A program made the position numbers and the translations under genes. From Candidatus Bathyarchaeum sp. (GTDB lineage: Archaea > Thermoproteota > Bathyarchaeia > Bathyarchaeales > Bathyarchaeaceae): a stretch of 64,000 nt of DNA. Shown one piece after another: positions 3,765-45,118 of this stretch; the first letter of the stretch is position 1, and each line of letters begins with the position of its first letter. Where the stretch lies: NCBI GenBank assembly GCA_026014495.1, contig JAOZIF010000137.1, forward strand, positions 5,611 to 69,610, in the 5' to 3' direction. The notes beneath the pieces are model-generated. The model had not been told where the DNA came from and did no database searches. It saw only the letters and a list, made by a program, of their open reading frames with translations.

Positions 3765-4448
3765 CTACGGACGCTTTGCAAGATGCATTATCCATGATGG
3801 AGGCCATAGTGGCGTCTTGATTTTGTGGTAAACAGGCATTATTTCAATTACAGAAAAAAAAGGAGTTACTATTTGGAGAAACTTTTTTTTGGACAGCTTA
3901 AAGTTGGTGTAATAGTGACCAAAGGTTCGATTGTTTATTTTTTCTTTGATAGAATCAGGTAATAAAAATATAAGTGGGAATTTCGTGTGAACTTCAATGA
4001 AATATTCGGGGTTTGGTATCTGAACTATTAAAGAACCTTTTGTCTTAATTACTCTTTGGAATTCGTTTAGCGCTAATTCAGGAGTTCGAAGATGTTCAAG
4101 GACAGATATTGCAAGAATCGTGTCAACTGCGCTCTCTTTGATAGGCAGGTTTTGAGCATCACAAACCAGTCTATTTATGCCATCAATTTTTGGGATATAA
4201 CCCAGCATTTCCCTGCTAAAATCAATAGAAAGAGTTTGTGCACCATTTTTGGCGCATTCGACACTAAACTGTCCCACGTTACAGCCTACATCTAAAACTA
4301 TGGAATTCTTCTTTACGTGTTTGATGATGTATTGAGAGTACTTTAAATTTCTCTCATCTACGGCACCAGTTTTTTTTGCTATATTCTCTAAAGAATTAAA
4401 GACAATATTACCTAGTTTGAATGTATCACTTTTTGTGTTATCGCTCAT
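3765..4448 (-). CDS. Class I SAM-dependent methyltransferase
   Basis: Motif I 'VLDVGCNVGQFS', followed by an acidic loop 'SIDFS' and 'LAISVLEHL' (Methyltransf_11-like). Confidence 0.8.
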   Translation of the reverse strand: MSDNTKSDTFKLGNIVFNSLENIAKKTGAVDERNLKYSQYIIKHVKKNSIVLDVGCNVGQFSVECAKNGAQTLSIDFSREMLGYIPKIDGINRLVCDAQNLPIKESAVDTILAISVLEHLRTPELALNEFQRVIKTKGSLIVQIPNPEYFIEVHTKFPLIFLLPDSIKEKINNRTFGHYYTNFKLSKKKFLQIVTPFFSVIEIMPVYHKIKTPLWPPSWIMHLAKRP

Positions 4449-4548
4449 TATTGTTCACCGTATTTCTCAAAAAATCAACGCGGTATACTCGTTTCTTAGT
4501 TAACTTTGTTCTGATGGCAACAATGCTTCAAGGGTTTTGTTTTTAATT

Positions 4549-5475: not shown

Positions 5476-5897
5476 CAGCTTGGTGGTTTAAAGAATTTAA
5501 TTGGCTTTGCAGGAACACCAACTGCAAGACAGTTATCGGGTATATCCTTGTTTACCACTGCACCAGCACCAATAACTGCATTTTCACCTATAGTAACGCC
5601 AGGAAGTATAGTGACATTTATTGAGATTCGTGCACCTTTCTTGATTACAACTGGACATATTCCACCCTCATCTGCTTTGTATCCTCTTAACACATTTGAG
5701 TGTGAAAGGATGTAATCAAACCCAGCAATTATAACATCATCACCAATTGTAATGTCCGAAAAGTGGACATCAAGAAAAACATGACTACCAAAAACATATG
5801 GATTACCAATTTTTATGCCTGCTTTCCTATACATAGCTATTCTTAATTTTTCTGAAGGAGAATACATTCCCAAAAAGCGCAGTAACGATTTAAACAT
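5472..5897 (-). CDS. Left-handed beta-helix (hexapeptide repeat) O-/N-acetyltransferase
   Basis: Imperfect hexapeptide repeats ('ITIGDDVIIAG', 'VTILPGVTIGENAVIGAGAVV'). There is a 4-nt stop/start overlap with the downstream GT2. Confidence 0.8.
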   Translation of the reverse strand: MFKSLLRFLGMYSPSEKLRIAMYRKAGIKIGNPYVFGSHVFLDVHFSDITIGDDVIIAGFDYILSHSNVLRGYKADEGGICPVVIKKGARISINVTILPGVTIGENAVIGAGAVVNKDIPDNCLAVGVPAKPIKFFKPPSC

Positions 5898-5980
5898 ACA
5901 AGTTCCTCACAGTTTATTATATGAATCTAAAAACAATATTTATTCTTACTTCCAAAAAGTCGACTAAAAAAGTTCATAAC

Positions 5981-6892
5981 TCAGTTTGATTTTTTATGCC
6001 CATAACCAGTTAAGTGACCCTTCAAGAAACCTGCCATCCAAGCAACCCTTTTGAAAGTGTAATGGAAGGGCAATAGAAAAGAAAACTTCTTGTGAGTTAT
6101 TTTAAAGCCACTCTTACAACGAATTAAACCAGCGACAAAACCAGCCATAGGTGTCATTTTCAAAAGCGATATTGAATGGGCGTCTTTATGAAAGACAAAG
6201 TGACCTCCGTAGCCATACCACATGTATTGTGTCCAAAGGGAAAGAAGTGAATTTCGTGTGAATTCGACAAAAACTTCATCTGTTGACTCCAGTTTCCAAC
6301 CAGTTTTGACTAATCGGGATACTAGTTCGGTATCTTCTGCTGCACCCTTTATGTTAACATCGAAACCTCCACTGTTTCTTACAGCATCAACTCTATGGAT
6401 GGCGCCTTCGGTTCCAGGTAAATAGCCATATGTTGACGATTCTTTTTCTCCGCAACTAGAGTCGACGACATAAACCAGATTTTCCAAGTCAGCAACAACG
6501 CCGTGACCCAGACATAAACCATATTTTCCTGCTGCAACGGCTACACGGGGGTTTTTTTCCATGAATTCAACTTGTCCTCTGGTGTATGTGTTGGATAGAA
6601 CCATGTCTCCGTCTACCCATATTATGTATTTACTTTGGGCTTTGTCAACAACAATCTGCCGTGCAGCGCCTAAACCAGTAATATTGCGGTATATTCGGTA
6701 AGTGATGTCTATATCGGAAAGGTAGTCTTTCACGATTGATAATGTCTGGTCGTTACTGAAGCCTTCAACGACAATTAGTTCAATTAAATGATGAGGAAAG
6801 TCTTGACTGATTATGCTTTGCATTGTCTTTGCAATGGTCTCGTCTACATTCTTTATGCATAGACCAAGTGTGACAATTGGTGAGTTTGTCAA
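5981..6892 (-). CDS. Family 2 glycosyltransferase (paralogue of 4549..5475)
   Basis: 'VTLGLCIKNVDETIAKTMQSIISQDF ... WVDGDM'. Same domain order and C-terminal amphipathic segment as 4549..5475. Confidence 0.8.
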   Translation of the reverse strand: MTNSPIVTLGLCIKNVDETIAKTMQSIISQDFPHHLIELIVVEGFSNDQTLSIVKDYLSDIDITYRIYRNITGLGAARQIVVDKAQSKYIIWVDGDMVLSNTYTRGQVEFMEKNPRVAVAAGKYGLCLGHGVVADLENLVYVVDSSCGEKESSTYGYLPGTEGAIHRVDAVRNSGGFDVNIKGAAEDTELVSRLVKTGWKLESTDEVFVEFTRNSLLSLWTQYMWYGYGGHFVFHKDAHSISLLKMTPMAGFVAGLIRCKSGFKITHKKFSFLLPFHYTFKRVAWMAGFLKGHLTGYGHKKSN

Positions 6893-6956
6893 AGTTTTCA
6901 GTCGTCTCCTACGAATAAAAAATCAGACGGTGAGTTATGTTAAGCGTCTCACTCAT

Positions 6957-8177
6957 TCAGATTAAACCCTTTTCTTTGAGCATGTCTTCAGTTATGAGTG
7001 ACCGAGCCTCTTGACTGGTTTTCCACAGTTTAAATCCACTACTTGTGACAAATGTTGTTAAAGCAGCCAATAGAATACAGTTGTTTTGTATTACTTCGAT
7101 TAACATTGTTCTAGTTTTTCTAATCAGCAATGCTGGACAAAGCATCACCAAAAACGCCGCCAACAATACAGGATATTGCATAAACACAAAAACGGAAATA
7201 ACACCTAGAACGACAAACAGAACAGGATTAAAAAGGTGCAAGAAAAGCTCGGGCACAGCTATTTTCTTAGGAAGCTTCAGTTTTCGGTTAACCAGTAACT
7301 TAAGAGACTTGATCCATAGACGCTGTAATTGGTTTGCACGTCTAATCTTCAAAGTTATCTTGCTTTTCCAGTCTGTTGGAAAAATAGTGTAGAAGCCCAC
7401 TTCAGGAATTAGTAGGCTTCTGCTGTTTCTTTGCACAACATCAAAGGCTGTGCCAGAATCGTCTGTTTCATGATTGAATTCCTGAAGGAATTTGCGTTTA
7501 TAGGCTGCGAATCCGCCTTGAAAAAAGATTGTTGAATGTACTTTTGATTCGCCAATTCGAATTGATTGGACAGTGTTATCAAAAAATTGTTCTCCTACGG
7601 TAACCCATGAGCTTTGAGAGTTAAACAATAGCTCTCTTGCAGTTATTGCACCCACAGTTGGGTCTGATAGGTATGGCAAAGCTTTTATCAATATATCTGA
7701 GTGCAAAAAGCAATCTGCATCGGATACTACTATAACATCACCTGTTGCATGTTTTAGGGCAAAATTTAGAGCTCTTGTTTTTCCTTCCCGTTCAGTTCTG
7801 CTTAATACTTTTATGTCCAAACAATCATTATTGCTTACAAATTCGTTTATTTCATCTATCGTTTTATCGGTTGAAGCGTCATTTACGAGTATGGTCTCAA
7901 ATTTCTTGCTAGGGTAATTAACTTTGCACAGGTTCTCCAACTTGAATCGAATGGTTTTTTCTTCATTACACACAGGCACTATGATACTTATAGACGGATC
8001 ATAGCTTTCAGTCAGCTTCAGATTCCAAGGTTTTGATGATTGACGTCTCATATACAGGTAATATATGCCTGAAAAACCTGAGAAAACGAAGAGTAGCAAA
8101 GCCCAAGCTACAAGCATCAAAATCATAAAAAAAATCACTCTTTTAGAACTCTTCTGAACAAAGAATAATCCATTCAA
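6957..8177 (-). CDS. Membrane-embedded family 2 glycosyltransferase (synthase-type, N- and C-terminal TM helices)
   Basis: N-terminal TM helices, 'ISIIVPVCNEE', 'LVNDASTD', 'VVSDADC', and C-terminal TM helices. The architecture resembles PgaC/cellulose/chitin-synthase-like GT2s. The Q-x-x-R-W motif is not cleanly visible. Confidence 0.7.
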   Translation of the reverse strand: MNGLFFVQKSSKRVIFFMILMLVAWALLLFVFSGFSGIYYLYMRRQSSKPWNLKLTESYDPSISIIVPVCNEEKTIRFKLENLCKVNYPSKKFETILVNDASTDKTIDEINEFVSNNDCLDIKVLSRTEREGKTRALNFALKHATGDVIVVSDADCFLHSDILIKALPYLSDPTVGAITARELLFNSQSSWVTVGEQFFDNTVQSIRIGESKVHSTIFFQGGFAAYKRKFLQEFNHETDDSGTAFDVVQRNSRSLLIPEVGFYTIFPTDWKSKITLKIRRANQLQRLWIKSLKLLVNRKLKLPKKIAVPELFLHLFNPVLFVVLGVISVFVFMQYPVLLAAFLVMLCPALLIRKTRTMLIEVIQNNCILLAALTTFVTSSGFKLWKTSQEARSLITEDMLKEKGLI

Positions 8178-8186: not shown

Positions 8187-9098
8187 TCAGATATTTTTGT
8201 TCAAGCGCTCATCGAACAGCTTGAATGTTTCACGTGCGTGGCTCTCTTTTGACACTCCTGCGACTACGCCTTTCAAATTGCTAAGATTTGCTAAGTAGGC
8301 TACAGCTTCAGGTGGTTTGAAGTAACCTGCTGCTAGCACACTTATAGCTAATACTATTGGGCTAGAAATATTAGACAAGGTGTTCTCAAATTCGGTCCTT
8401 GATGGGTTCATTTGGAAACCTGCCTTGTTGAAAGGTGTTGCAATCAAAGTTTGGTCCAGATTAATATTCCATTCATTGAATTTTCTTACGAAAAGTGGAA
8501 GATTGCGAGTGTTAAATCCTGGAGTTATGCCTTTTTTAGAAAGAAATGAGGTGAAAGATTTGAATAACCAATCAAAGTTTAAAGCTAAACCCATGTCTGT
8601 CAATACTTCATGGAGTAAAACTGATGACAGGTTTGCTTTTTTGCCAGCTGCCGCTTTTATTTTGTTAATTTCGTATGAAACATACGTTTTCAAGAGACTT
8701 TCAGGTTTCATCCTAAAAGCTCCGTTTAAGCCTCCAAAAATTGCCTGAACATCACCTGACAGTGCCATCTGTTTCACAACGTTCTTGGCTAAGCCAGGAG
8801 TTCCAGTCTGAGTTGCAATTCTAACGTATTCAAAGACGTAAGGGACTATTGCATGAAGCTCTAGTTTATCAATTTTCTCTCGTTCTCGTAAGGTTTTTAG
8901 AATTGTTAAGGTTAGGTCGCTCACAGAAAACATGAAACCTGTTGCACCGTTCTCAACAGCAGTTAGGATCAAGTCTGCCTTATCTGCTGCGGAAACATCG
9001 CCGTCGGCTCTACTTCGAGCCTGTTCTTGAGAGAGATGGCTGATTCCATGAAATGGATTGTCTCCTACTAGGAGCATGGTTCGCACTTTTTTATTCAT
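8187..9098 (-). CDS. Conserved-looking hypothetical protein (soluble, unknown fold)
   Basis: 303-aa ORF with ordinary composition. Its start overlaps the stop of the upstream oxidoreductase by 1 nt. I recognise no motif. Confidence 0.45.
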   Translation of the reverse strand: MNKKVRTMLLVGDNPFHGISHLSQEQARSRADGDVSAADKADLILTAVENGATGFMFSVSDLTLTILKTLREREKIDKLELHAIVPYVFEYVRIATQTGTPGLAKNVVKQMALSGDVQAIFGGLNGAFRMKPESLLKTYVSYEINKIKAAAGKKANLSSVLLHEVLTDMGLALNFDWLFKSFTSFLSKKGITPGFNTRNLPLFVRKFNEWNINLDQTLIATPFNKAGFQMNPSRTEFENTLSNISSPIVLAISVLAAGYFKPPEAVAYLANLSNLKGVVAGVSKESHARETFKLFDERLNKNI

Positions 9099-10108
9099 TA
9101 TTGTTCACTTCTTGTTTTTACTTGTTCAATTATGTAGTCAACTTTCGAGGATGTCTCAAAGTTTGGTTCACAATGCTTGTTTTCTAACAACGAATTAACG
9201 AAATGTTGGTTTTCTCTGAAGTATTCTGCATCACCTATCGAAAAATACACATTGTCATTAAGGTCATGTCTGTACCACTTCTGTTGGGTACCATCACTTG
9301 AGGTCAAGAGTAATCTGTCGTCGTTTACATCTATTGTTCCATCAGAGCATTTGATGAACAAACCAAATTCTGGCATTCGATAATTTGGCATTTGTTGGGA
9401 AACATTGATCTGTCCGGATAACCCTGCAGAATTAGTAACTGTGAAAGAAACTGATAGTTCAGAACCAGTTTCATTTCTTGTGCTGGACAAAACATTTTGA
9501 ACATCGAAATCGCCAAGTATCCAGAGTGATAAGTCTATTATGTGACAACCGATGTCTCTGAGCGCGCCACCACGTGATGCAGAAGACATTGACTCCTTTG
9601 TTAGTCCAAGAAAATCTGAAGAATATGCATAAGCCTTGAAAGATTTTATTTTGCCCAGATTTCCTTGTTGTAATAATTCTTTAGCTTTCCCAAAAACAAC
9701 AGAAAACCGTTTCATGTAACCAACCATGGTGATGCTGTCTGAGTTCTTGGCAAGTTCACACATTTCTTTAGCTTGCTCATAGTTGGTGGCAAGTGCCTTT
9801 TCCACGAACAAGTGACGAGCTATTTCTTTTTCATACAAAGTCTTTACTATTGATGAATGTGAAGAGATAGGAGTCGTCACGTAAGCTACGTCAAGGTCTA
9901 ACCCTGCGAGTTTATCAATGTCATTAACAACAAGAACTCCTGTTGGTGAAAAGATTTTTTTATAAAGCCTATTCAGCAATTTGCTTTTGTCACATAATGC
10001 TACTAGTTCGACGTTAGAGAAAACATTCAAAAGGCTTGAATGCAACAGGCCCATTTTTCCTAACCCGATAACAGCAACTCTAAGTTTTTGTTTTTTCAAA
10101 GTATACAC
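9098..10108 (-). CDS. Gfo/Idh/MocA-family NAD(P)-dependent sugar oxidoreductase
   Basis: N-terminal Rossmann 'LRVAVIGLGKMGLLH', an 'EKAL' motif, and a C-terminal alpha/beta dimerisation domain. Confidence 0.8.
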   Translation of the reverse strand: MYTLKKQKLRVAVIGLGKMGLLHSSLLNVFSNVELVALCDKSKLLNRLYKKIFSPTGVLVVNDIDKLAGLDLDVAYVTTPISSHSSIVKTLYEKEIARHLFVEKALATNYEQAKEMCELAKNSDSITMVGYMKRFSVVFGKAKELLQQGNLGKIKSFKAYAYSSDFLGLTKESMSSASRGGALRDIGCHIIDLSLWILGDFDVQNVLSSTRNETGSELSVSFTVTNSAGLSGQINVSQQMPNYRMPEFGLFIKCSDGTIDVNDDRLLLTSSDGTQQKWYRHDLNDNVYFSIGDAEYFRENQHFVNSLLENKHCEPNFETSSKVDYIIEQVKTRSEQ

Positions 10109-10227: not shown

Positions 10228-10974
10228 TTAAATGTTCATTGCGCCTCTGAAAAGAGTTTTCAAGATGCTAAATCCATCTCTAAAAGTGTTAAGATTAGAA
10301 ATACCATAACGTCTTGCGCGCTCAATACTTGGAATTTCATGAACAGTTAGTCCGAGCAATTTCGATTTTATACAAATCTCTGTTTCAATTTCGAAATTCT
10401 CACTCTCTAGAACAGGATTAAGACAGCGTAATGCGTCTTTTTTGAACGCCATATAGCCATAGCATAAATCGGAATAGTTAGTAAGAAACATGAAGTTTGA
10501 AATCCCTGTTAGAATCCTGTTGCCAACACGCCTTAATGGAGTTAAATCTTCAGAGCCACCGCAAGGCAAAAACCTCGAACCCTTTACAACATCTGCGCCC
10601 AGCTCTACAGCTTCAGCGAATCGAAATATCTCTTTTGGGTCCATTGACCCGTCAGCATCCAACATTACAGTAATGTCACTGGTACGCATACTTTCTTGGA
10701 AAGCTTCACGCAATGCACCACCTTTACCTGATCCGTTCTGAAGAATGACTTTGGCTCCGAGCGTCTTAGCAATTTCAACAGTCTTGTCTTTTGAATGCCC
10801 ATCTACAACTAAGATGTCGGCACAGCCTATTTGTTTTAAACTATTGATTATATCGTATATGTTTTTTTCTTCATTTAGCGTAGGAATAATGACTGTTACT
10901 CGATTATTCCCAAACTGTGAATCATTCATCCGCATACTCACCATCATTCTTCTGAACAAAACAGTTATTTTCAT
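10228..10974 (-). CDS. Family 2 glycosyltransferase, polyprenyl-phosphate sugar synthase (Dpm1-like) type
   Basis: 'VTVIIPTLNEEKNI', 'VVDGHSKDKT', 'MLDADGS'. The true start may be an internal Met (MRMNDSQ). Confidence 0.75.
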   Translation of the reverse strand: MKITVLFRRMMVSMRMNDSQFGNNRVTVIIPTLNEEKNIYDIINSLKQIGCADILVVDGHSKDKTVEIAKTLGAKVILQNGSGKGGALREAFQESMRTSDITVMLDADGSMDPKEIFRFAEAVELGADVVKGSRFLPCGGSEDLTPLRRVGNRILTGISNFMFLTNYSDLCYGYMAFKKDALRCLNPVLESENFEIETEICIKSKLLGLTVHEIPSIERARRYGISNLNTFRDGFSILKTLFRGAMNI

Positions 10975-11105: not shown

Positions 11106-11792
11106 TTAGCTTTTGTCAATGTAAAATCTTTCAGTATTCTTAAAGTATCTATCAACATTTTCCACAACAGGCTTTTTGGAATTGTTCAAAACCACTGACA
11201 ACTCACTAGTAAACTGCTTAACAGCTTTCTTTTTAAGAGAAAGATACTCCGAAATATCGACGTCAGCAATGCAATCTTTGTACACGTCAATCAATCGTTC
11301 AATGCGGGGTCCAAAATTCAAAAATCTATGCATCACAGAATATTGATACCTAATAGACGTTAACTTCAGATTTTGAAGGCATCTCCTAATAATTCGATTC
11401 GCAGCGCGATGGTCAGGATGAGAATCACGCATAAACGGAAAATAGACCTCAACTGGAGAGTGTTTTTTGAGTATTTCAGTTATTTTTTGTTCAGCAACAG
11501 TTTCATGTTCTTTAAGCATTCTATCTTCAAAATCGAGAAACACTAAGTTTTCAACAGGTACACCTAATACAGTTGTAGCATCAATTACTTCTTTCTTTCT
11601 GATTTTGACTATCGCATCGGGAGTTATATCCGAGTTTAGATCTAAACAGTTAGAAAATGCATGCCTCCCATCGGTTAATAAAACGATGTAGACTTGATAG
11701 TTTTCACTAAGTTTTTTAGCGATTGTTCCACCACAACCCAAAGTCTCGTCATCTGGATGCGGAGAAAACACTACTATTGGTTTATCCATCAA
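11106..11792 (-). CDS. LmbE/PIG-L family N-acetylglucosaminyl deacetylase
   Basis: Hallmark 'VVFSPHPDDETLGCGGTI' plus downstream 'HPDH' zinc-binding motif. Confidence 0.85.
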   Translation of the reverse strand: MMDKPIVVFSPHPDDETLGCGGTIAKKLSENYQVYIVLLTDGRHAFSNCLDLNSDITPDAIVKIRKKEVIDATTVLGVPVENLVFLDFEDRMLKEHETVAEQKITEILKKHSPVEVYFPFMRDSHPDHRAANRIIRRCLQNLKLTSIRYQYSVMHRFLNFGPRIERLIDVYKDCIADVDISEYLSLKKKAVKQFTSELSVVLNNSKKPVVENVDRYFKNTERFYIDKS

Positions 11793-11856
11793 ACAACACT
11801 CTCATTTACGCATTAGGTAACCAAAGAAAAATAACAATTATTCATAAACACAAATT

Positions 11857-12978
11857 TTAATTTGATAAAATGTCTTTTTTCAAAGAAAAACTAAGTTTCT
11901 TTGCCAAATTATCAACAGTGCTACTACAGGTAATCCAGTTGTAAAACTTACTATGCAAACTATTGCGCACTAACCTAACTTCAAAATTCTTTCTGTAGGT
12001 GTGCGTCCATCTTTTTTTGTACGCTTCAGCACCTCTCATAAGATCATATTCCTTAATTCCATTTTCTATACAGCGCTTCAAAATGAGCATTATTGTGAGA
12101 CTCCCAGCAGAATAAACAGAATACTCAGGAAGAAAACCCGAGAGATAATAATACGTCTTTTCAGCATAATCAAAGGAATAGTGACCTGCAATGGGTTCAT
12201 CGTTAGCCATTAAGAAATAAAGACTCAACCAGTTTTTATCATTAAAACGTTCAGCGACATCTACATGAAAATCACGAAAAGCTCCATCATGAAAAGCCCC
12301 TGACAATCCTTCCGAGTTCCATTTTTTTTGATGTATCTCCATGAAAACATTTATAGCTTCATTAACTGAGAGTCCAACCTCGTCAAACTTTTTAAAATCT
12401 ATTTTATGATTTTGCTTAATTCGTCGTAGTTTTTTGTTCAGGTCCTGTCGCATGTTGCAGCTCAACCCTTTCATAAAACTTTCAAACGAATCAGGCAAAG
12501 TAATATACGGACACACATTGTAAACTCTTTCTTGAACATCTAAATTGAACGGAACATTGGAAAAGAGGTTGCCAGAATAATTTTTGCTTTCAGGAATTTC
12601 CTTAAGCTCAATCCAATCCCAGTCTGCAACGACATTCACCAAATAATCCATTATAATATTTAGACACTTTTCTTTTTGTTCAGCAATAATAAAATTGTTA
12701 TAATCAGAATGGCGGGTTCCCACAAATTCTACTTTTTTAACTGAACCCAAACCAGGCATCTTATACTTCGATAACATTAGTGGAGCAATAGCACAAACCT
12801 TGTCTTCATCTTCAACAGTTAAAAGCAAAAGGCGCCTGTTAGACCCGAAATGCTTCCACCAAGTAGACAACCAGGCCCAAGTCAAGAAAACGTTGTTACC
12901 AAAAAGGTTGCTTTCAAGAACAGTGTCCCATGTTTCCTTAACACCATCAAAGTTATCCACTTCGTTTAGTTTCAACAT
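11857..12978 (-). CDS. Fem/CelD-type GNAT-fold protein (Acetyltransf_6 / BioF2-like family)
   Basis: 373 aa. N-terminal 'FLTWAWLSTWWKHFG' and C-terminal 'YYLSGF...YSAGSL....LKRCIENGIKEYDLMRGAEAYK' match the CelD/FemAB-related GNAT pattern. Confidence 0.65.
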   Translation of the reverse strand: MLKLNEVDNFDGVKETWDTVLESNLFGNNVFLTWAWLSTWWKHFGSNRRLLLLTVEDEDKVCAIAPLMLSKYKMPGLGSVKKVEFVGTRHSDYNNFIIAEQKEKCLNIIMDYLVNVVADWDWIELKEIPESKNYSGNLFSNVPFNLDVQERVYNVCPYITLPDSFESFMKGLSCNMRQDLNKKLRRIKQNHKIDFKKFDEVGLSVNEAINVFMEIHQKKWNSEGLSGAFHDGAFRDFHVDVAERFNDKNWLSLYFLMANDEPIAGHYSFDYAEKTYYYLSGFLPEYSVYSAGSLTIMLILKRCIENGIKEYDLMRGAEAYKKRWTHTYRKNFEVRLVRNSLHSKFYNWITCSSTVDNLAKKLSFSLKKDILSN

Positions 12979-13015
12979 TAATATCCCTCACGCTTAAGTC
13001 AGCTAACAGGAGACA

Positions 13016-13897
13016 TCATTTTTCTCTGAAAATACGCAGATAAGCAGAAGCAGCCATTGCACGGAGATCGTCTTTCAAAACTTTCTTAGGAAAAGCCTGT
13101 TTGAAGTAAGAAAAATCTCCAACAGGAGAAAAAGTTGAGTCCCAAACACCATCACGGGAAGCCACAGTAATTTGTTTCACTGAACGAGTTGAAATACCCA
13201 TAAGTTTTGAGGCAGCAATATCTGCTACAAGAGGGTTGTCACAAGACATCACCAAGTTCAATTGTTTAGCGTATTTTCCATGTGCAACTAGACCATCGAC
13301 TACAACCAAATCAGTTTTGATTTGCTTGTTTATGAAAACTATTGCTTCGTCCAATACTTTGTGATACTTGAACTTTTGTGGATAAGCGTTACATCCATAA
13401 AAATTCTTTAGTGCACACGTAATTTTCACACCGTGCATATACTTTAGTTTAGGAACGTTTACCACAAGATCGGCTTCATAAAATAGTTCAGGTATATGGA
13501 ACGTGAATAGTGAACGACCGATTCTAGCGTCGATGATACGGCATTTCTTTTCGGTTAAATTGACTAAGTTTACGTCTTTTTCTTTAGCCATCTTGTCATA
13601 TTCAAGCATCTTGAAGGCATGTTTGCATTTCATGGCGGAGGCGTCTGATTCTACGACGAAAATTTCAGAAGTTCGGGCAAAATTTTCTCTAAAAACGTCA
13701 ATCAGAGCAGCAACGAATAATGGATCAGTGACTTCTCCAGTTGAAGGGTGATAATAGTAACACATATTTGGTTTTATTACGATTTTATCAGCGTTCCTGT
13801 TAAAGTTGAATCCAATTAAATCTAGAGATTCTTTGATTGCAGCTTTCAATGTATCTGGATTACAGTTCTCAGTACGAACAAAACTTACAGTGCTCAA
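13016..13897 (-). CDS. DUF362 domain protein
   Basis: 'KIVIKPNMCYYYHPSTGEVTDP' and the overall ~290-aa layout resemble DUF362. Function unknown. Confidence 0.55.
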   Translation of the reverse strand: MSTVSFVRTENCNPDTLKAAIKESLDLIGFNFNRNADKIVIKPNMCYYYHPSTGEVTDPLFVAALIDVFRENFARTSEIFVVESDASAMKCKHAFKMLEYDKMAKEKDVNLVNLTEKKCRIIDARIGRSLFTFHIPELFYEADLVVNVPKLKYMHGVKITCALKNFYGCNAYPQKFKYHKVLDEAIVFINKQIKTDLVVVDGLVAHGKYAKQLNLVMSCDNPLVADIAASKLMGISTRSVKQITVASRDGVWDSTFSPVGDFSYFKQAFPKKVLKDDLRAMAASAYLRIFREK

Positions 13898-13912
13898 GTC
13901 TTTTCCTCCTTT

Positions 13913-14914
13913 TTAGGTGTGCAGTCCTGAATTCTTCATCGCGTTTTTGTATGCAGAATCAATTACTTTCAAGCCATACAAGCCAGCATCTCCTGAAGGC
14001 TGAGGCTGCTCATCTTTCTGTAAACTGCTAACAAAATGTTCTAGTTCCAAGTAGTTAGAATCCTTTTTATTTAACCCAAATTTGCGTGCAATACCGTTCC
14101 AGAAGATTTTTGAAGTGCTCTGAGGAGAAATTTGAACCAGCATATTTTGGGCAGTCCCACAAACTTGAACCGATTGCAAAAAGTCTGTTGAGAACCATCC
14201 TACTTTAGCAGTTGCTACAGGACCGTCCTTAAACTTTAGCACACAAGTCGCAGCATCCTCCAACTCGAGGTTAAACATGTGTTCTAAAAAACATTCTACA
14301 TGAACGACTTCACCGAAATACCAGCTTAACAAGTCAATCAGATGTGAACCAAGGTCTAGTAAAACACCGCCTCCAGATAGTTCTTTGTCAAGCCACCATG
14401 ACGGAACTTTAACAGGACCAACATGGTCACTTCTTGGAGAGAATGGACCACCACTGACATTGGTGACCTCCGCCAATTTAATGCTGCCAAACAAACCATC
14501 TTTTATTCCATCATATAGGTTTGAAAGAATGGGGTTAAATCTCATATCATATCCCATCATCAGTTTAACACCGTTCTTTCTGACAGCTGACAGAATTTCC
14601 TTCCCTTCATCAACAGTTCTAGCTAGCGGTTTCTCCAGAAGAATGGCTTTTCCAGCTTCTGCCGCTTTCTCTGCACCATCACGATGAAGAAAGTTGGGCA
14701 AACTAACGACAACTGCGTCAACAGCGTCATTTTTCAAAAGGTCATCATAGTTAGCGTAAACGTCTTTGATACCCATTCCTTTTGCATACCTTCGGGCTTT
14801 TTGAGATAAATCTGCCACGGCCACGGTTTTTGCGCCCTCTAGCCGTAGAGAATTACGAAGACTTACTTTGCCTTGTTCTCCAAGCCCAATTAATCCTAAA
14901 TTTACCTGTTTCAT
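13913..14914 (-). CDS. Gfo/Idh/MocA-family NAD(P)-dependent sugar oxidoreductase
   Basis: 'VNLGLIGLGEQG' Rossmann motif, an 'EKPLA' motif, and a C-terminal oxidoreductase domain. Confidence 0.8.
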   Translation of the reverse strand: MKQVNLGLIGLGEQGKVSLRNSLRLEGAKTVAVADLSQKARRYAKGMGIKDVYANYDDLLKNDAVDAVVVSLPNFLHRDGAEKAAEAGKAILLEKPLARTVDEGKEILSAVRKNGVKLMMGYDMRFNPILSNLYDGIKDGLFGSIKLAEVTNVSGGPFSPRSDHVGPVKVPSWWLDKELSGGGVLLDLGSHLIDLLSWYFGEVVHVECFLEHMFNLELEDAATCVLKFKDGPVATAKVGWFSTDFLQSVQVCGTAQNMLVQISPQSTSKIFWNGIARKFGLNKKDSNYLELEHFVSSLQKDEQPQPSGDAGLYGLKVIDSAYKNAMKNSGLHT

Positions 14915-14939
14915 AATCTATCTCTCATTTTATAAAAAA

Positions 14940-15980
14940 TTACAGAAATACTGCAAGGAATTTTTCGCATAATGATAACACAAATTTGTTAAATTTTGGC
15001 ATATAGACTTTGTTATAAAGATACACTTTGTTAAGTTGTCCTTTCCATTCTCTTTTCCATCTCCATAAACCCCAGCCTTCAGAGTTTTCATTGGGCAGCG
15101 GTTCACGGACGTGCCCCATATGATACCAAGAGAATCCATTGTTGCAAGCCCATTTCATTGTTTCCCAGTGTAGCAGATCGTTGGGTCTTACGTGCCAACT
15201 TTCTTCCCGAGAACCTGTACCTAATGCATAAGCAGTCTTGCCATGAAGTACGACAAAAACTCCAGCAACAGGTTGACCCTCAAAAACAGTTAAGAATATT
15301 TTTAGATTGTTACGTTTTCCAAAGATTTTGCTGAGAGATTGAAAATATATAAAAGGGTATGTTTTGAAGCCAACTCTTTTAGCTGAAATCGCGTGTAACT
15401 CAAAAAAGGAAGCGAGGGCATCATAGTTGTTACATTGAACTACTTTGGCACCTTGTTTTTGTGCTTTTTTGATGTTTCTTCTTTTGTTATGTGTAATTGT
15501 TTTCCAAAGTTCGGTTTCAGATTTCCGAAGGTCTACTTTGTAAACGTTGAATACTGTGTTAACTGTATAACCCATATTTTCTAAAGTCTGATTTGTTTCT
15601 GGCGCATAGATGTTAGCTTCAGAGACCCTGTTCTGGATTGCATGTTTTTCTAATAGCCCCATTAACTTTTCCAGAACTTCTTTCCTGTTGTCTGTCCCTA
15701 CAACTGGTCCGTAACCATAAACGCCGCCAACTTCTGTGCGGTCACCAAACCCGAACCGCTTGTTGTATCGAGCTTGAATTAAACCTGCAAGATTATCATC
15801 GTTTATTGCTAAAAACCTTAGAATTTTCGCGTGGGGATTAGATTCCTTTATGGCTTCGCCGTATTCAAATGACTGTTGAAGATTACCTAAAGTGTAGTCC
15901 TGCAAGAACTTTTCCCACATGCCAGATGTAGGGTGGTCGATAATTGTATATTTGTCCATAATACTAGTCTCTTGCAACAT
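14940..15980 (-). CDS. FemAB-family (aminoacyl-tRNA-dependent peptidyltransferase-like) protein
   Basis: 'LQQSFEYGEAIK' (FLQS..W-type N-terminus), 'HNKRRNIKKAQKQGAKV', 'GKTAYALGTGSRE....RPNDLLHWETMKWACNNGFSWYHMG', and 'GLWRWKREWKG' (cf. FK..FG of FemX/FemA). Confidence 0.7.
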   Translation of the reverse strand: MLQETSIMDKYTIIDHPTSGMWEKFLQDYTLGNLQQSFEYGEAIKESNPHAKILRFLAINDDNLAGLIQARYNKRFGFGDRTEVGGVYGYGPVVGTDNRKEVLEKLMGLLEKHAIQNRVSEANIYAPETNQTLENMGYTVNTVFNVYKVDLRKSETELWKTITHNKRRNIKKAQKQGAKVVQCNNYDALASFFELHAISAKRVGFKTYPFIYFQSLSKIFGKRNNLKIFLTVFEGQPVAGVFVVLHGKTAYALGTGSREESWHVRPNDLLHWETMKWACNNGFSWYHMGHVREPLPNENSEGWGLWRWKREWKGQLNKVYLYNKVYMPKFNKFVLSLCEKFLAVFL

Positions 15981-15999
15981 AACGTAAAGCTGTTTTGAA

Positions 16000-17238
16000 T
16001 CAAAAACTTACACCTGGACGACTCCAAGGATAGACTTTTTTCTTTATGATTTTTGCCAATGCGACTGGAAACAAAGCCGAATTGAACAAAAATGGAAGTG
16101 GATCATCTAATTCAAACAAATCATAAAAGAGTCCGGGTTCATAAAACTTGAGCCAGCTAGCTAATACTTTCAGGTTGTTCTGGTTTTTAAAGATGTGATT
16201 TGTAAAGCCGTTTTTAAGCATGCTAAAGAGGTATAGTAGGTCTTGATCAAAGTATCTGCCTTTAACGCCCACCTTATAGTTGAAGACTCCCTTAACGTCA
16301 CCGTCCATAGCAATTTGGTAAAGTAAATACGGAAAGTCCACTCCAGCTTTGACTGCAACAGATAGTGATCCCCAGAAACGAGGGTTAATCTCCAGTAGTT
16401 TTGGAATATTATCTCGGGAGTCAACTCTAAACTCAAGTTCTGCAATTCCGTGCCAATCTAACGCCTTAAGCAAAGTTTCACTGTATTTTCTTAGATTATT
16501 AGTAAGCGGAACAGTTTCGCGATAACAGCTGTTGCCACCTTCAGGAGGCCATGCTCGAGTTACTTTGATACAACAAAATGCTCGAGGTTTACCGTTGTTG
16601 TATACAGTCGCCACTGAAAAGTTCGTTCCCGGAACATATTCTTGAATTAAAGGATACGGAAAATATTGATGAATACTGTTATAAGTTGCGATAAGCTCTG
16701 CAGGTGAATTGACAAGACCCCCTCTTCTGTGATAAGCACGACCATTTCCCCAAACCATAGACCATCGCGGTTTGACGATACACGGATAGGTTATTTCTTG
16801 CGAGATTTTGTTCAGTTTAGCGGTTGAATTATCTACAAAAAATGTTTGTGGAATGGGTACGCTGTGTTCAGTGGCTAATTTCATTGTTGATCGTTTGTCA
16901 AAGCACTTGAGAATTGAATCATGACGGGCAATAGGAAGGTTCACATAAGGACTTATTCGATCTCTGTTTTTGGAGATTGGTAAAAGAGACCATTCAAAGA
17001 TGGGAAAAAGAAGATCAAACTTTGTTTTTTTAACGATTTTTTCTACTGCACAAGCATATTCTTTTTCAAAACTCGTAGATGGAACCAGCACTTGTCTTTT
17101 GCAATATTTTGAAAACCGAGAAACAGATAAAGAATAACTCGACATAATAGCTGTGTCTACTTTTCGTTTTCCTAGAGATCTTAAGATGGGAAGGACAACC
17201 GGATTATGTCCCTCGGCAATTAAAACACCATTACCCAA
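16000..17238 (-). CDS. ATP-grasp family carboxylate-amine ligase
   Basis: 'PCIVKPR', 'LIQEYVPG', and 'HGIAELEFRVDSRDNIPKLLEINPRFWGSL', typical of ATP-grasp_4-type ligases. Confidence 0.75.
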   Translation of the reverse strand: MGNGVLIAEGHNPVVLPILRSLGKRKVDTAIMSSYSLSVSRFSKYCKRQVLVPSTSFEKEYACAVEKIVKKTKFDLLFPIFEWSLLPISKNRDRISPYVNLPIARHDSILKCFDKRSTMKLATEHSVPIPQTFFVDNSTAKLNKISQEITYPCIVKPRWSMVWGNGRAYHRRGGLVNSPAELIATYNSIHQYFPYPLIQEYVPGTNFSVATVYNNGKPRAFCCIKVTRAWPPEGGNSCYRETVPLTNNLRKYSETLLKALDWHGIAELEFRVDSRDNIPKLLEINPRFWGSLSVAVKAGVDFPYLLYQIAMDGDVKGVFNYKVGVKGRYFDQDLLYLFSMLKNGFTNHIFKNQNNLKVLASWLKFYEPGLFYDLFELDDPLPFLFNSALFPVALAKIIKKKVYPWSRPGVSF

Positions 17239-17282
17239 GGCATAACTACAACCATTTACGAGCTATTTCAGGAAAGTCTCTT

Positions 17283-18653
17283 TCAAATTGTTTTATCTTT
17301 ATAAAGGACATCTTCAGGAGTTTCTCGTTCTCGAATCAGTTTGACATTACCGTTTGAATCTAAATTAACTGCACCAGGACGGGGATGAAGAAATTGTGTG
17401 GATCGCGAAATTGTGTATGCACCGCAATCAGAAATTGAAAGTATGTCGCCTTCAGAAACTTTTGGAAGAAAAGTTTTGAGATTAATGAAATCTTCAACAT
17501 ATAGTAGAGGACCAACTACATTAATTTCCTCTTCTGGTTGTTTGGATGCTTTGTTTGCAACACTAATTTTTCGCTGCTCTATTGCACCAAAACGAGGAAG
17601 CAGATTTGTTCCAGCATCAACCATTACCCATTTGTAGCCGCCAGCATTTTTGACATGATCAATACGTGTAAGTAAGATTCCAGACGCTGAAGTGATAAAT
17701 CTCCCTGGTTCAACAATAATTGTTGGTTCAGGTAAATCTTCTAGACCTTGCTTGATTTCGTTTACAATAGACTTGGCAACAGATTCTATGTTTGTAATGT
17801 TACGGTTTTCAGCTAATTTTGATTTGAGACCGATTTTTCGTCTCAGAAAGTCTTTGATTAAATCATTGTTTCCAATAAAACGAGCCCCACCGGGATTGAA
17901 TCCACCGCCTATGTTGAGGTATTTAAGTTCAACTCCAAAGTTTCTGTAGAGTTCGCGCATCATAGGTAGAAGTACTTTTGTTGATACCCTATAGGGATGA
18001 GCCATTATTGCTTCAATTTTCAAGTTTTTGAGTTTTGTTGCCTGTTGAACGGCTGAATATGCTTCTTTTATAGAAAAACCGAATCTACTTCCAAGATTGC
18101 AATAAGCAGCGGTAACAAGCTTGTTTAAAGAGAGATACTTGAATATACCGGGTTCTTTGAAGGGATTTATTCTGAAACCGATAGCCTGTTTAACGCCCAA
18201 CTCTCCTGCTACAGCATTCACTCTGTTGAGTTCAGTAAGAGATTCGACATTTATGAGTCGGATTTGCTTGCTGATAGCTGTCTTTAGTGTTTCTTTGGAT
18301 TTCATGGGACCATCAAAGATTATGTTCTCGCCACCAAAGCCAGCCCGTAAAGCCACATGTATATCAAGTTCGGAAGCAACTTCGGCGTATGCTCCGTTCT
18401 CTTTAAGGGTTTGGCAAATAGCCAAATTGTTATTGGTTTTGATTGAATAACAAACCATTACTTTGGGATATAAAGCAGAAAATGCACTGGAGATACGATT
18501 AAAGTTCTCTATAAGCTTAACTTCGTCAAAGACAAAAAGTGGTGTATCATATTTTTCGCATAGTTCAACCAAGTTTACTCCGTGTAGAGTCAAATGACCC
18601 TTTTTGTCGATTCCAAAGCTATTTTCGTGAATCAAGTTTTTATTAATCTCCAA
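17283..18653 (-). CDS. PLP-dependent decarboxylase, Orn/DAP/Arg decarboxylase family 2 (LysA-like)
   Basis: PLP-lysine context 'CYSIKTNNN', then 'NIGGGF', 'EPGRFI' and 'SDCGAYT'. Confidence 0.8.
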   Translation of the reverse strand: MEINKNLIHENSFGIDKKGHLTLHGVNLVELCEKYDTPLFVFDEVKLIENFNRISSAFSALYPKVMVCYSIKTNNNLAICQTLKENGAYAEVASELDIHVALRAGFGGENIIFDGPMKSKETLKTAISKQIRLINVESLTELNRVNAVAGELGVKQAIGFRINPFKEPGIFKYLSLNKLVTAAYCNLGSRFGFSIKEAYSAVQQATKLKNLKIEAIMAHPYRVSTKVLLPMMRELYRNFGVELKYLNIGGGFNPGGARFIGNNDLIKDFLRRKIGLKSKLAENRNITNIESVAKSIVNEIKQGLEDLPEPTIIVEPGRFITSASGILLTRIDHVKNAGGYKWVMVDAGTNLLPRFGAIEQRKISVANKASKQPEEEINVVGPLLYVEDFINLKTFLPKVSEGDILSISDCGAYTISRSTQFLHPRPGAVNLDSNGNVKLIRERETPEDVLYKDKTI

Positions 18654-18695
18654 TAGTAATACAGATACGCTGATTTAAACAGCACATTCTCATGC

Positions 18696-19832
18696 TTACA
18701 CAAGTATTTCAGGCATGGCTTTCAAAAATCGATCGTTCATATTGGGAAGGCCTATGGTAACGCGTAGACAGTGACCGATAACGGGTAATTCGCCAAGATT
18801 CTTTATTATTATGCCTTTATCTAAAAGTTCACGGTAAACTTCCTCGGTGTTTTTGTTAGTTTTAAATGTAACAAAGTTTGCTTTTGAATCCAAAACTTTT
18901 ATTCCGTTAATAACACGCAATTTACTAAGAAGTCTCTCACGCTCAGTGTTAACTAAATTTGTCCATCTTTGCACAACTTCAATGTTATCCAACAGCCTTT
19001 GGACGTACCTAGCAGTAAGTGTGCTAACAGTATAAGGAAGTGTCTCTGAAAGGACTGAAGCAAAATCCTTGTGCGCAGTAGCGTACCCAAATCGTAGTCC
19101 CGCCAAACCAAACGCTTTGGAAAATGTCCGCACTACAACTATATTCTTTTTATTAATAGCCAATGGACAAACAGAATACGTTCCAAACTCCACGTAAGCT
19201 TCATCCACTAAGACAACCGCAGAAGATGCATTAGCCAAAGCTTCAATTGCAGCCCAATCAAACTGATTTCCAGTAGGATTATTCGGTGAACAAACAAAGA
19301 TTAACTTGGTCTTATTCGTCACCTTCTTAAGAACATCATCAACATCAATAGACAAATCGTCTCTAAGGGGCACTGAAACCAGCTTAGCTCCACTTAACTC
19401 CACCCTCTTTTTATACATGAAGAAACTGGGCGAAATTGAGATGGCTTCATCACCTTTTTCCAAGAAAAGCTGGATAATAAAATCAATTAGTTGTTCGCTA
19501 CCACTGCACGCCACAACACATTCAGAAGGCACACCTACATATTTTCCTAAGGCAGTTTTAAGCTCAACCATTGCGTTTGAATCATAAAATCTCAAATCAA
19601 CATTTTTAATAACCTCTAGAAAAACGCCTTTAAGAAAACTAGAGTCAACAAAGAAGTTTTCGTTAGCATCTAACTTTAGAATCTGAGAAGAACAAATGCC
19701 AAGCTTTGAGGCAAGCTGGGTAACACCAGTAGAAGAATTAACATAACCGAGAAGTGATCCATCAAAGGATTGCAAAAGTTCAAGCTTTTTTTCTAACCAA
19801 TTCAAATTCGGTTTCACTTCCATAATTTTCAA
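18696..19832 (-). CDS. Class I/II PLP aminotransferase, HisC/CobD-like
   Basis: 'LDANENFF', 'SPNNPTGN', and 'RTFSKAFGLAGLRFGY' (PLP lysine). Confidence 0.8.
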   Translation of the reverse strand: MKIMEVKPNLNWLEKKLELLQSFDGSLLGYVNSSTGVTQLASKLGICSSQILKLDANENFFVDSSFLKGVFLEVIKNVDLRFYDSNAMVELKTALGKYVGVPSECVVACSGSEQLIDFIIQLFLEKGDEAISISPSFFMYKKRVELSGAKLVSVPLRDDLSIDVDDVLKKVTNKTKLIFVCSPNNPTGNQFDWAAIEALANASSAVVLVDEAYVEFGTYSVCPLAINKKNIVVVRTFSKAFGLAGLRFGYATAHKDFASVLSETLPYTVSTLTARYVQRLLDNIEVVQRWTNLVNTERERLLSKLRVINGIKVLDSKANFVTFKTNKNTEEVYRELLDKGIIIKNLGELPVIGHCLRVTIGLPNMNDRFLKAMPEILV

Positions 19833-19856
19833 TCTCAGTTATAATCAGTTATTATT

Positions 19857-19930
19857 TGGAGCCAGGGGTTGGAGTTTCACCAACGTGAGCGGCTCTGCAA
19901 ACCGCCGCCTGATTACTCAGCCACCCTGGC
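19857..19930 (-). tRNA. Atypical tRNA with anticodon GCA (Cys-type), encoded CCA, non-consensus D- and T-loops
   Basis: Hand-folded minus-strand sequence: GCCAGGG-TG-GCTG-AGTAATC-AGGC-G-GCGGT-TTGCAGA-GCCGC-TCAC-GTTGG-TGAAACT-CCAAC-CCCTGGC-T-CCA. It has a perfect 7-bp acceptor stem, 5-bp anticodon and T stems, and U33, G37 and U73. The D-loop lacks GG, and the T-loop reads TGAAACT instead of TTCRANY. The gene is a GC-rich island in AT-rich DNA. Confidence 0.7.
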
Positions 19931-45090: not shown

Positions 45091-45118
45091 GGATTGTCCC
45101 TCACAGACCTAAAAAAGG

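Follow-up and report, generated by a model that had tools for sequence, protein, structure and literature searches.

An operon-linked variant tRNA-Cys as candidate dedicated donor for Fem-type transferases in a glycosylation island of Candidatus Bathyarchaeum

Why should a tRNA gene with an abnormal elbow stand at the head of a cluster of enzyme genes in an uncultured archaeon? The question is raised by a stretch of 64,000 nucleotides of Candidatus Bathyarchaeum sp. (assembly GCA_026014495.1, contig JAOZIF010000137.1, positions 5,611 to 69,610), which was analysed at its full length and is called the window here. On its minus strand a tRNA-Cys(GCA) gene is followed by eight open reading frames (ORFs), among them a homologue of the bacterial Fem aminoacyl transferases. 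A first, sequence-only reading had proposed that this tRNA is the dedicated aminoacyl donor for the Fem-type enzyme or enzymes of the cluster. Our analysis supports this proposal, which we regard as probable, on the basis of a Fem-type enzyme, tRNA loops that are not lineage-wide and a linkage conserved in relatives. As judged from the sequences, the tRNA is most likely a dedicated, poorly translating tRNA-Cys, a specialised extra copy belonging functionally to the cluster, and the system is best described as an archaeal variant of the pairing between a Fem transferase and a dedicated non-proteinogenic tRNA, with cysteine as the predicted amino acid and a tie to glycans. The sequence-only reading had named three outcomes that would speak against it, namely GNAT proteins of acyl-CoA-dependent type, loops shared by the whole lineage and a linkage missing from relatives; each of them was examined and none was found.

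ARAGORN with default settings detected a single tRNA-Cys(GCA) in the window, 74 nt long and with an encoded CCA as first read, and Rfam RF00005 scored it at 43.6 bits (gathering threshold 29). Divided into its stems and loops, it reads GCCAGGG UG GCUG AGUAAUC AGGC G GCGGU UUGCAGA GCCGC UCAC GUUGG UGAAACU CCAAC CCCUGGC U CCA. The cysteine identity set (G34-C35-A36, G37 and discriminator U73) is complete, as it is in 13 of the 15 operon-linked copies presented below. The anticodon loop has 7 nt, the G15:C48 pair is kept next to a G13·A22 mismatch, and the minimum-free-energy fold retains the acceptor and T arms (z = -2.9). The canonical elongator elbow (G18-G19 with U54-U55-C56) is gone, since the D-loop AGUAAUC is without G18-G19 and the T-loop reads UGAAACU instead of UUCRANY, with G55 and A56 replacing U55 and C56. 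A tRNA with cysteine identity and a lost elbow, as originally claimed, is thus what the gene encodes. The nucleotides G18, G19, U55 and C56 are nearly invariant in translating tRNAs, and a T-loop changed from UUC to UGN together with an altered D-loop is the mark of the staphylococcal non-proteogenic (NP) type. The second tRNA of the window, a tRNA-Arg(CCG) at 39056-39162 on the minus strand with a 28-nt intron and an encoded CCA, serves as an in-genome control; it was missed by default ARAGORN and by Rfam at the gathering threshold and was found with ARAGORN when introns were allowed. Its D-loop has the canonical GG and its T-loop is UUCAAAU, so the odd elbow is peculiar to the tRNA-Cys and is not a habit of the genome. 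CysRS and SepRS have a common identity set consisting of the anticodon, U73 and G37 (PMC8762117). The variant would accordingly keep everything that a charging enzyme needs, that is GCA, G37, U73, the cloverleaf, G15:C48 and CCA, and the encoding of CCA might suit a tRNA whose altered elbow makes it a poor substrate for the CCA-adding enzyme. Charging by CysRS and exclusion from the ribosome are what we infer from these features, as are the acceptor and the order of steps proposed further below.

Are such loops common among the tRNA-Cys genes of the lineage? One genome per species was scanned with a generic tRNA-Cys pattern, in which stems were fixed and loops left free, giving at least 120 tiles, mostly from Bathyarchaeia and some from other archaea. 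Among the matches listed, to which all counts of unlinked copies refer, 118 of 120 tiles (tiles and loci carry L numbers) have no cluster genes by the tRNA, while L107 and L198 hold operon-linked tRNAs. Positions 54-56 of the T-loop are UUC in 115 of the 118 unlinked copies and UGC in three, all from Caldarchaeum, whereas the 15 operon-linked copies carry UGA (6), UGC (5), UUA (2) or UUC (2); non-UUC T-loops (13/15) are strongly enriched in the linked group compared with the unlinked matches listed (Fisher p = 1.6e-13). The difference extends to the rest of the molecule. A GG D-loop is present in 99/118 unlinked against 3/14 linked copies (this linked count omits the L206 copy, which was added later), the variable loop has mostly 5 nt in the former (101/118) and mostly 4 nt in the latter, the T-stem is xxGGG/CCCxx versus GUYGG/CCRAC, and CCA is encoded in 57/118 versus 14/15 copies (p = 7e-4). 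The nearest sequence neighbours of linked copies are other linked copies, and the variants are a distinct group of tRNAs with loops that are not lineage-wide. Concerning the canonical tRNA-Cys, the metagenome-assembled genome (MAG) SPRUCE 632 has one on contig 3 (L152), and its cluster on contig 6 (L198) contributes two variants, while MAG L.E.AR.18 (GCA_013388905.1) has one on contig 29 (L171) and its cluster on contig 19 (L206) contains one intact and one degenerate variant. Because canonical and variant copies are both held by these two MAGs, the variant is an additional paralogue at least in SPRUCE 632 and L.E.AR.18.

Synteny was studied in 84 loci fetched around Fem homologues, onto all of which the eight window proteins were mapped. 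With default settings, ARAGORN detected tRNAs in 13 of these loci, all of them Cys-type and all on the Fem strand. The sequence surrounding 81 Fem homologues (758 kb) contains 15 tRNAs, of which 13 are Cys-type, co-directional with Fem and at most ~5.5 kb from it; the other two, detected with introns allowed, are a tRNA-Pro 6.8 kb from Fem and the tRNA-Arg of the window, 19 kb away. A covariance model of 14 linked tRNAs recovered no missed intact copies over all Fem loci. Besides the known copies it matched a decayed fragment of L007 and, weakly (E 0.054), a sequence of L022 that was rejected as a tRNA-Cys since the intron option of ARAGORN reads it as an intron-containing tRNA-Pro. The linkage to the operon is conserved, as the sequence-only reading would have it: in each of the 11 loci whose sequence reaches beyond the start of the HisC-like aminotransferase gene (the window, L003/L008, L007, L015, L020, L023, L025, L039, L050, L107 and L206) the tRNA lies ~30-90 nt ahead of that gene, which is always the first after the tRNA in the relatives that have it. 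The gene upstream of the tRNA varies, being DUF1616 in some loci and a pair made of a second GFO oxidoreductase (GFO2) and a 303-aa protein in others; this pair stands directly beside the variant tRNA in L007, L050, L107 and L206. Moreover, L022 and L032 have no aminotransferase or decarboxylase, and the tRNA is established 73-78 nt before the Fem gene itself, which is followed by glycosyltransferases only. In L198, two variant tRNAs flank a module of GT4 and the second GNAT (AT6) and a module of ATP-grasp, GFO, DUF362 and AT6, with no Fem in the 8-kb tile. Since neighbours differ and arrangements such as those of L022, L032 and L198 occur, the tRNA travels with Fem-superfamily genes and not with a chromosomal position. 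The core order in most relatives is tRNA, aminotransferase, decarboxylase, AT6, Fem and PIG-L, from which the window subclade differs by an added ATP-grasp gene and a moved AT6. Fem followed immediately by PIG-L is the most conserved protein pair (26/62 loci), and AT6 is found directly before Fem in 18/47 loci.

Extra, decaying copies of the variant tRNA were also located at module boundaries (L007 124-186, L206 5094-5165 and L198 7655-7729). One is truncated to its 5' two-thirds and has a mutated anticodon, the others have acceptor or T-stem mismatches, and L206 additionally carries an 89-aa decarboxylase fragment near its degenerate copy. Decaying copies at such boundaries suggest duplication or recombination at the tRNA.

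Whether the variant works as an RNA was judged from signs of selection in it. Among 14 linked copies, 94.9% of the cloverleaf pair cells are standard pairs, and at nine cloverleaf pairs both partners have changed in a compensatory way; neither value was reached in any of 500 shuffles, slid controls fall to about 30-55% paired, and G15:C48 is kept in 12/14 copies. Stems and core are therefore under selection. Positions 18, 19, 55 and 56 drift among the linked copies, and inspection by eye of the 14 aligned sequences gave no consistent pattern of D-loop/T-loop covariation that would rebuild the elbow. The anticodon loop has 6 nt in L015 (161-234) and 8 nt in L049 (768-842), with GCA still inside, and ARAGORN labels these two tRNAs as '???' or as Met with a 3-nt intron. 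Kept stems, a drifting elbow and odd anticodon loops are together the pattern expected if charging matters and decoding does not. The same data bear on the idea that the tRNA-like gene acts in cis, either as an RNase P/Z processing signal or stabiliser that fixes where the operon mRNA begins, or as a recombination repeat for module shuffling. That the tRNA always precedes the first ORF by 30-90 nt, and that decaying copies exist in L198, L206 and L007, would agree with it, but a cis element needs neither a conserved GCA, G37, U73 and encoded CCA nor four compensatorily kept stems, and the identity of the tRNA is always Cys. Furthermore, TATA-like boxes were found ahead of the tRNA as well as in the gap that separates it from the first ORF, and those directly after the tRNA suggest a separate promoter for the protein genes, compatible with a leaderless mRNA. 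We therefore consider a role in cis improbable.

The donor role that we favour requires an enzyme of the Fem type, and here profile and fold agree. The Fem-like protein matches Pfam FemAB (PF02388) with 80.1 bits against a gathering threshold of 24. A profile of its family (18 members) searched against all Protein Data Bank (PDB) sequences matches exclusively Fem transferases, with E-values of 8.5e-21 for S. aureus FemX, 5e-11 for W. viridescens FemX and 0.004 for FemA. Its AlphaFold 2 (AF2) model is of high quality (predicted local distance difference test, pLDDT, 92; predicted template modelling score, pTM, 0.88), and the top 11 Foldseek matches are all aminoacyl-tRNA-dependent transferases with template modelling (TM) scores of 0.68-0.79, led by the FemX of S. 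aureus (0.79) and that of W. viridescens (0.75-0.78) and followed by FemA and Sbb17/Sba18, whereas acyl-CoA tandem GNATs reach 0.57 at most. The coiled-coil insertion of Fem proteins, for which the sequence-only reading suggested a search of the predicted structure, is missing, and in this the protein resembles the short W. viridescens FemX. An invariant WRWK motif (W308-K309) aligns with F-K of AFKK in S. aureus FemX; we take this motif to hold the catalytic lysine, presumably equivalent to Lys305 of W. viridescens FemX. The protein is a member of the Fem family and is predicted, from sequence and model, to be an aminoacyl-tRNA-dependent N-aminoacyl transferase, its aminoacyl-tRNA donor being deduced from the family membership and the linked tRNA. 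The second GNAT, which had also been called Fem-type, stays below the FemAB gathering threshold (15.8 bits against 24), and a PDB sequence search gave no match. Nevertheless, hhalign aligns it with the Fem family over its full length (300 columns, probability 96.6), placing its invariant YK motif on the WK of the family, and the closest folds to its AF2 model (pLDDT 87) are FemX (TM 0.60-0.67), Sbb17 and FemA, followed by the MprF aminoacyl-phosphatidylglycerol synthases. By sequence and model it is a divergent protein of the Fem superfamily, outside the FemAB family by profile, and the claim of two Fem-type enzymes stands for the first in full and for the second at the level of the superfamily.

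The genes around the tRNA are presented in Table 1, together with the unlinked Caldarchaeum tRNAs mentioned above.

Table 1. Features of the window and of three Caldarchaeum tiles (PLP, pyridoxal phosphate; DAP, diaminopimelate; GT2, family 2 glycosyltransferase)
Feature	Position	Strand	Assignment and remarks
Variant tRNA-Cys(GCA)	19857..19930	-	ARAGORN, Rfam; groups with operon-linked tRNA-Cys
HisC-like class I/II PLP aminotransferase	18696..19823	-	Pfam Aminotran_1_2, E 1e-53
Fold-III PLP decarboxylase, DAP-decarboxylase family	17283..18653	-	Pfam Orn/DAP decarboxylase
ATP-grasp ligase	16000..17238	-	Pfam ATPgrasp_Ter and ATP-grasp_3
Fem-type (FemX-like) tandem-GNAT transferase, 346 aa	14940..15980	-	Pfam FemAB 80.1 bits and Acetyltransf_6
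Gfo/Idh/MocA (GFO) oxidoreductase	13913..14914	-	Pfam GFO/IDH/MocA
DUF362 protein	13016..13897	-	Pfam; always partnered by GFO oxidoreductase
Second, divergent Fem-superfamily tandem GNAT (AT6), CelD/BcsL type	11857..12978	-	Pfam Acetyltransf_6
PIG-L/LmbE-family N-deacetylase	11106..11792	-	Pfam PIG-L 100.4 bits
AglJ-like GT2, dolichyl/polyprenyl-phosphate sugar synthase type	10228..10974	-	Pfam GT2
Second GFO oxidoreductase (GFO2)	9098-10108	-	Within the 8187..10108 pair
303-aa protein	8187-9098	-	No Pfam match; pairs with GFO2
Four GT2 genes, methyltransferase, DUF2206 membrane protein	196..8177	-	Co-directional glycosylation array; surface-glycan context
Caldarchaeum G55 tRNA-Cys	L086 620-693; L090 3621-3694; L106 4385-4458		D-loops AGCAGCU, AGAAGUU, AGCAGCG

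The eight ORFs 3' of the tRNA are separated by gaps of 42, 44, 19, 25, 15, 37 and 64 nt, and the Pfam domains assigned to them in the sequence-only reading were all found. Its distance of 24 nt between the tRNA and the first start codon is correct for a TTG at 19832; homologues start at a Met equivalent to ATG 19823, however, which is therefore probably the start of the HisC-like gene and leaves a gap of 33 nt. The co-directional array is not confined to these genes, and extends beyond 11106 through further glycosylation genes to ~196. The HisC-like protein passes the NCBIfam hisC cutoff narrowly (298.8 bits against 276.55) and scores 178.8 bits with CobD, below cutoff; its PDB relatives are likewise HisC and CobD. 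The decarboxylase does not reach the NCBIfam lysA cutoff (263.9 bits against 297.9), and in the PDB comparison it has LysA, D-Orn/D-Lys decarboxylase and BtrK as relatives, being nearer to the first two types than to BtrK, an enzyme that decarboxylates Glu tethered to a carrier protein. The ATP-grasp gene is accessory, found in the window subclade (L003, L006, L007, L015, L206) and missing from most relatives, and a PDB sequence search with its protein gave no relative. The GFO oxidoreductase of the cluster has archaeal UDP-N-acetylglucosamine 3-dehydrogenase as its top match, below cutoff. GFO and DUF362 recur as a pair in relatives, and nothing was found for the DUF362 protein in a PDB sequence search. 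The AglJ-like GT2 adjoins the PIG-L gene, recurs beside the operon in relatives and scores 174.7 bits with NCBIfam AglJ; this match and those with dolichyl-phosphate hexose transferase, PpgS and ArnC-type models are all below cutoff. From its sequence it probably makes a lipid-linked sugar substrate.

Put together, these genes allow a pathway to be proposed. The AglJ-like GT2 would build a sugar of the N-acetylglucosamine (GlcNAc) type, probably on a dolichyl phosphate carrier. Enzymes of the PIG-L/LmbE family de-N-acetylate GlcNAc derivatives, and the one encoded here would remove the N-acetyl group from the lipid-linked sugar, exposing the amine on which the aminoacyl group is predicted to be placed. 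The FemX-like enzyme would then move an aminoacyl group, most simply cysteine, from the charged variant tRNA to the freed amine, possibly joined by the second Fem-superfamily enzyme, and the product would be a unit of the Cys-glucosamine (Cys-GlcN) type. Tailoring of the sugar or of a second substituent may be carried out by the HisC-like aminotransferase, the decarboxylase, the ATP-grasp ligase, the GFO oxidoreductase and the DUF362 protein, and delivery of the decorated unit to a surface glycan may fall to the island's large membrane proteins (DUF2206, DUF2079 and GT87/PMT_2-like). These membrane proteins we take to be of the GT-C type, using polyprenyl-phosphate sugars. Cysteine as the transferred group and a PIG-L-generated glucosamine as its acceptor are proposed with lower confidence than the dedicated-donor role itself. 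No dedicated synthetase was found in the 64-kb window.

The PLP and ATP-grasp enzymes also invite a reading in which the tRNA is a biosynthetic carrier, charged with O-phosphoserine by SepRS, or bearing an aminoacyl group that is remodelled on the tRNA by these enzymes before delivery by Fem. SepRS and CysRS have their identity set in common, and SepRS-SepCysS occurs in some Bathyarchaeota (PMC8762117). Directly after the tRNA, where Fem itself does not follow, there is invariably a gene for a HisC/CobD-type PLP enzyme, of a family that binds phosphate-ester substrates, and the decarboxylase is related to BtrK, which acts together with an ATP-grasp enzyme on an amino acid tethered to a carrier. 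On the other hand, the window and the related loci lack SepRS, PSTK and similar genes, the tRNA of L022 and L032 accompanies a Fem gene alone, the decarboxylase resembles LysA and D-Orn/Lys decarboxylases more closely than BtrK, and there is no precedent for PLP or ATP-grasp families acting on aminoacyl-tRNA. We hold a carrier function to be distinctly unlikely. Its fullest form, in which Cys or O-phosphoserine on a ribosome-excluded variant tRNA would be remodelled or extended by the HisC/CobD-like and BtrK-like enzymes and, where present, the ATP-grasp ligase and delivered by the two Fem-superfamily enzymes to lipid-linked glucosamine, is improbable. The tRNA would then play the part of the acyl-carrier protein in butirosin biosynthesis or of the scaffold peptide in PEARL pathways and, if so, would be the first tRNA known as a biosynthetic carrier for glycan decoration, and this in Archaea.

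Returning to a tRNA that serves as the dedicated donor, several observations weigh against it. Coexistence of canonical and variant copies was seen in two relatives, the window's own MAG lying outside the tiles listed, and both two-copy genomes are MAGs, in which mis-binning is possible. Three Caldarchaeum MAGs have a tRNA-Cys with a UGCAAAU T-loop, no GG in the D-loop and no encoded CCA, and Fem, AT6 and PIG-L were not found in the tiles of these three genes; a tRNA cannot therefore be called non-translational from its G55 alone. Caldarchaeum may translate with its G55 tRNA-Cys or may have an unlinked second copy of its own. The linked copies of L020 and L023 keep the canonical UUC, and may represent a less specialised state. 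Many distant Fem homologues (at most 38% identity, without PIG-L or AT6) have no linked tRNA; in L053, decarboxylase, AT6, Fem and PIG-L occur in order, and the 1.7 kb of sequence preceding them contains no tRNA. The tRNA is immediately followed by A/T-rich TATA-like boxes in the window, L015, L020, L049 and L107, and the roles given here to five of the eight enzymes are guesses. Part of this material would suit an ordinary, divergent translational tRNA-Cys, linked to the cluster by inherited gene order or by a tendency of tRNAs to flank variable glycosylation islands, with Fem drawing on the general pool or on another amino acid. The largely collinear neighbourhoods of the window and L003 (including HTH_45 and DUF1616) and the canonical-looking tRNA-Cys near Fem genes in L020, L023 and L071 point the same way, as do the UGC T-loop of Caldarchaeum and the Fem homologues lacking a tRNA. 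However, the tRNA holds its position despite a changed upstream neighbour and stands directly before Fem in L022 and L032, 13 of the 15 tRNAs across the Fem loci are Cys-type, a separate canonical copy exists in two MAGs, and decoding is difficult to reconcile with 6- and 8-nt anticodon loops and with positions 55 and 56 that vary freely. An ordinary tRNA-Cys is, in our judgement, unlikely.

Beyond the cluster, the large membrane proteins named above mark the glycosylation island, in which two further ORFs without a Pfam match were located: one of 1023 aa at 25623-28694 on the plus strand, opposite to the cluster and of slightly higher GC, and one of 506 aa at 32137-33657 on the minus strand. 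A different setting surrounds Fem homologues of 57% identity in L001/L002 and L005, with no tRNA within 10 kb; methyltransferase, radical-SAM/SPASM, DUF2206 and GFO with DUF362 are neighbours there, and a polysaccharide deacetylase (PF01522) replaces PIG-L. Beyond ~39 kb, the window carries chromosomal housekeeping genes, including those for Cdv cell division and UvrABC. The Cdv set at 43016-46625 comprises a Vps4-like AAA+MIT protein, CdvA and Snf7/ESCRT-III, and lies near a bacterial-type UvrB-UvrA-UvrC cluster at 47150-53664, confirming a chromosomal TACK-archaeal context. One could imagine that a tRNA-Cys gene was the insertion site of a mobile island and that its odd 3' half comes from the attachment site of the element, given that tRNA genes are common integration sites and that the cluster sits within a variable glycosylation island. 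The 3' end of the tRNA is not repeated in the 64 kb with up to 3 mismatches allowed, though, there is no integrase in the window, the 5' half with the D-loop is variant too and the flanks are housekeeping genes, so that an integration-site origin is largely excluded and in our view very improbable.

What would follow from a dedicated donor? If true, this would be the first tRNA-dependent Fem-type pathway in Archaea, and the linked copies would provide a natural set of tRNA variants showing which elbow nucleotides separate ribosomal from non-ribosomal use. Bathyarchaeia are abundant in sediments and their envelopes are essentially unknown; a predicted cysteinyl-amino-sugar would place a reactive thiol on or in their cells, and the combination of variant tRNA and Fem gene would be a simple genomic marker for such pathways. 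A literature search found no paper naming both Bathyarchaeota and FemAB, and a review of cysteine encoding systems treats the SepRS of Bathyarchaeota, not a variant tRNA (PMC8762117).

Several known systems share parts of this arrangement. Polysaccharide loci of the PEP-CTERM/exosortase-A type also combine a FemAB protein with a DAP-decarboxylase-like enzyme. Both corresponding models are matched here below cutoff (TIGR03019 by the Fem-like protein, 66 bits against 260; TIGR03099 by the decarboxylase, 142 bits against 478), and the same enzyme pairing thus exists in uncharacterised bacterial exopolysaccharide loci, in which we know of no linked tRNA. The ArnC/ArnD/ArnT and PpgS-type routes resemble the proposed pathway in having a GT2 polyprenyl-phosphate-sugar synthase, de-N-acylation of a lipid-linked sugar and a large membrane glycosyltransferase, but they include no aminoacylation and no tRNA, and the matches of the window proteins are all below the family cutoffs.

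As for the predicted product, mycothiol and bacillithiol have a cysteinyl-glucosamine core in common (PMC7278568). In these pathways, a PIG-L/LmbE deacetylase (MshB/BshB) frees the amine of GlcN, which is then cysteinylated, and a tandem GNAT (MshD) takes part too; the difference is that MshC/BshC add the cysteine there, whereas here it would come from a tRNA via Fem, within a lipid-linked glycosylation island. Membership of the cluster in one of these pathways was considered and rejected, and they are kept as an analogy: BshB1 is the best NCBIfam match of the PIG-L protein, at 77.9 bits against a cutoff of 182.5, BshA scores are at most 78.8 against 273.7, and neither BshC nor MshC is present in the 64-kb window. 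In L205, on a contig labelled Helarchaeota at NCBI, a 569-aa protein (5197-6906) is encoded directly after Fem and two PIG-L genes; about 100 residues at its N-terminus weakly match the N-terminal Rossmann-like domain of BshC (in Pfam at 26.7 bits, cutoff 27; with NCBIfam thiol_BshC at 23.6 bits), and it has a CxC...CxxC motif. No homologue of it was found in the window or the other loci.

Closer to the transferase itself, W. viridescens FemX (UDP-MurNAc-pentapeptide:L-Ala transferase) is similar in length (335 aa against 346 aa) and is also a tandem GNAT with no coiled coil, but identity is 15-17%, its donor comes from the ordinary pool of tRNA-Ala and its acceptor is a peptide linked to a nucleotide. 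Sbb17 and Sba18, whose structures hold the amino sugar streptothrisamine, resemble the Fem-like model with a TM of 0.68 (query-normalised) or 0.81 (target-normalised); they belong to bacterial secondary metabolism and use Gly-tRNA, the sequence similarity is marginal (E 0.37), and to our knowledge their cluster has no dedicated tRNA gene. These Fem-like enzymes are able to accept an amino sugar in transfer from aminoacyl-tRNA (PMC12945691).

The nearest parallel is found in staphylococci. In their non-proteogenic tRNA-Gly genes, the TTC of the T loop is replaced by TGC or TGT; the tRNAs bind only weakly to EF-Tu and ribosomes, and FmhB, FemA and FemB use them by preference. This tRNA lineage is restricted to staphylococci, and according to a 2020 study in Nucleic Acids Research a split of a tRNA family into translating and non-translating members is seen only for tRNA-Gly of S. 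aureus and S. epidermidis (PMC7826273). As with the staphylococcal NP1-3 tRNA-Gly, Fem transferases are paired in the archaeal system with extra tRNA paralogues that keep the synthetase identity, the T-loop is changed from UUC to UGN (UGA or UGC in 11/15 linked copies) with loss of the D-loop GG, and a canonical isoacceptor is also present, in two relative MAGs. The archaeal system differs in its domain of life, in the Cys and not Gly identity of its tRNA, in a tRNA gene that is physically linked to the enzyme genes, in an enzyme without the coiled coil of FemA/B and in a likely acceptor that would be a deacetylated amino sugar or glycan instead of a peptidoglycan stem peptide. The U55-to-G change common to the archaeal and staphylococcal tRNAs indicates convergence, and suggests that the same solution of splitting a tRNA family arose independently in uncultured archaea, down to that single base.

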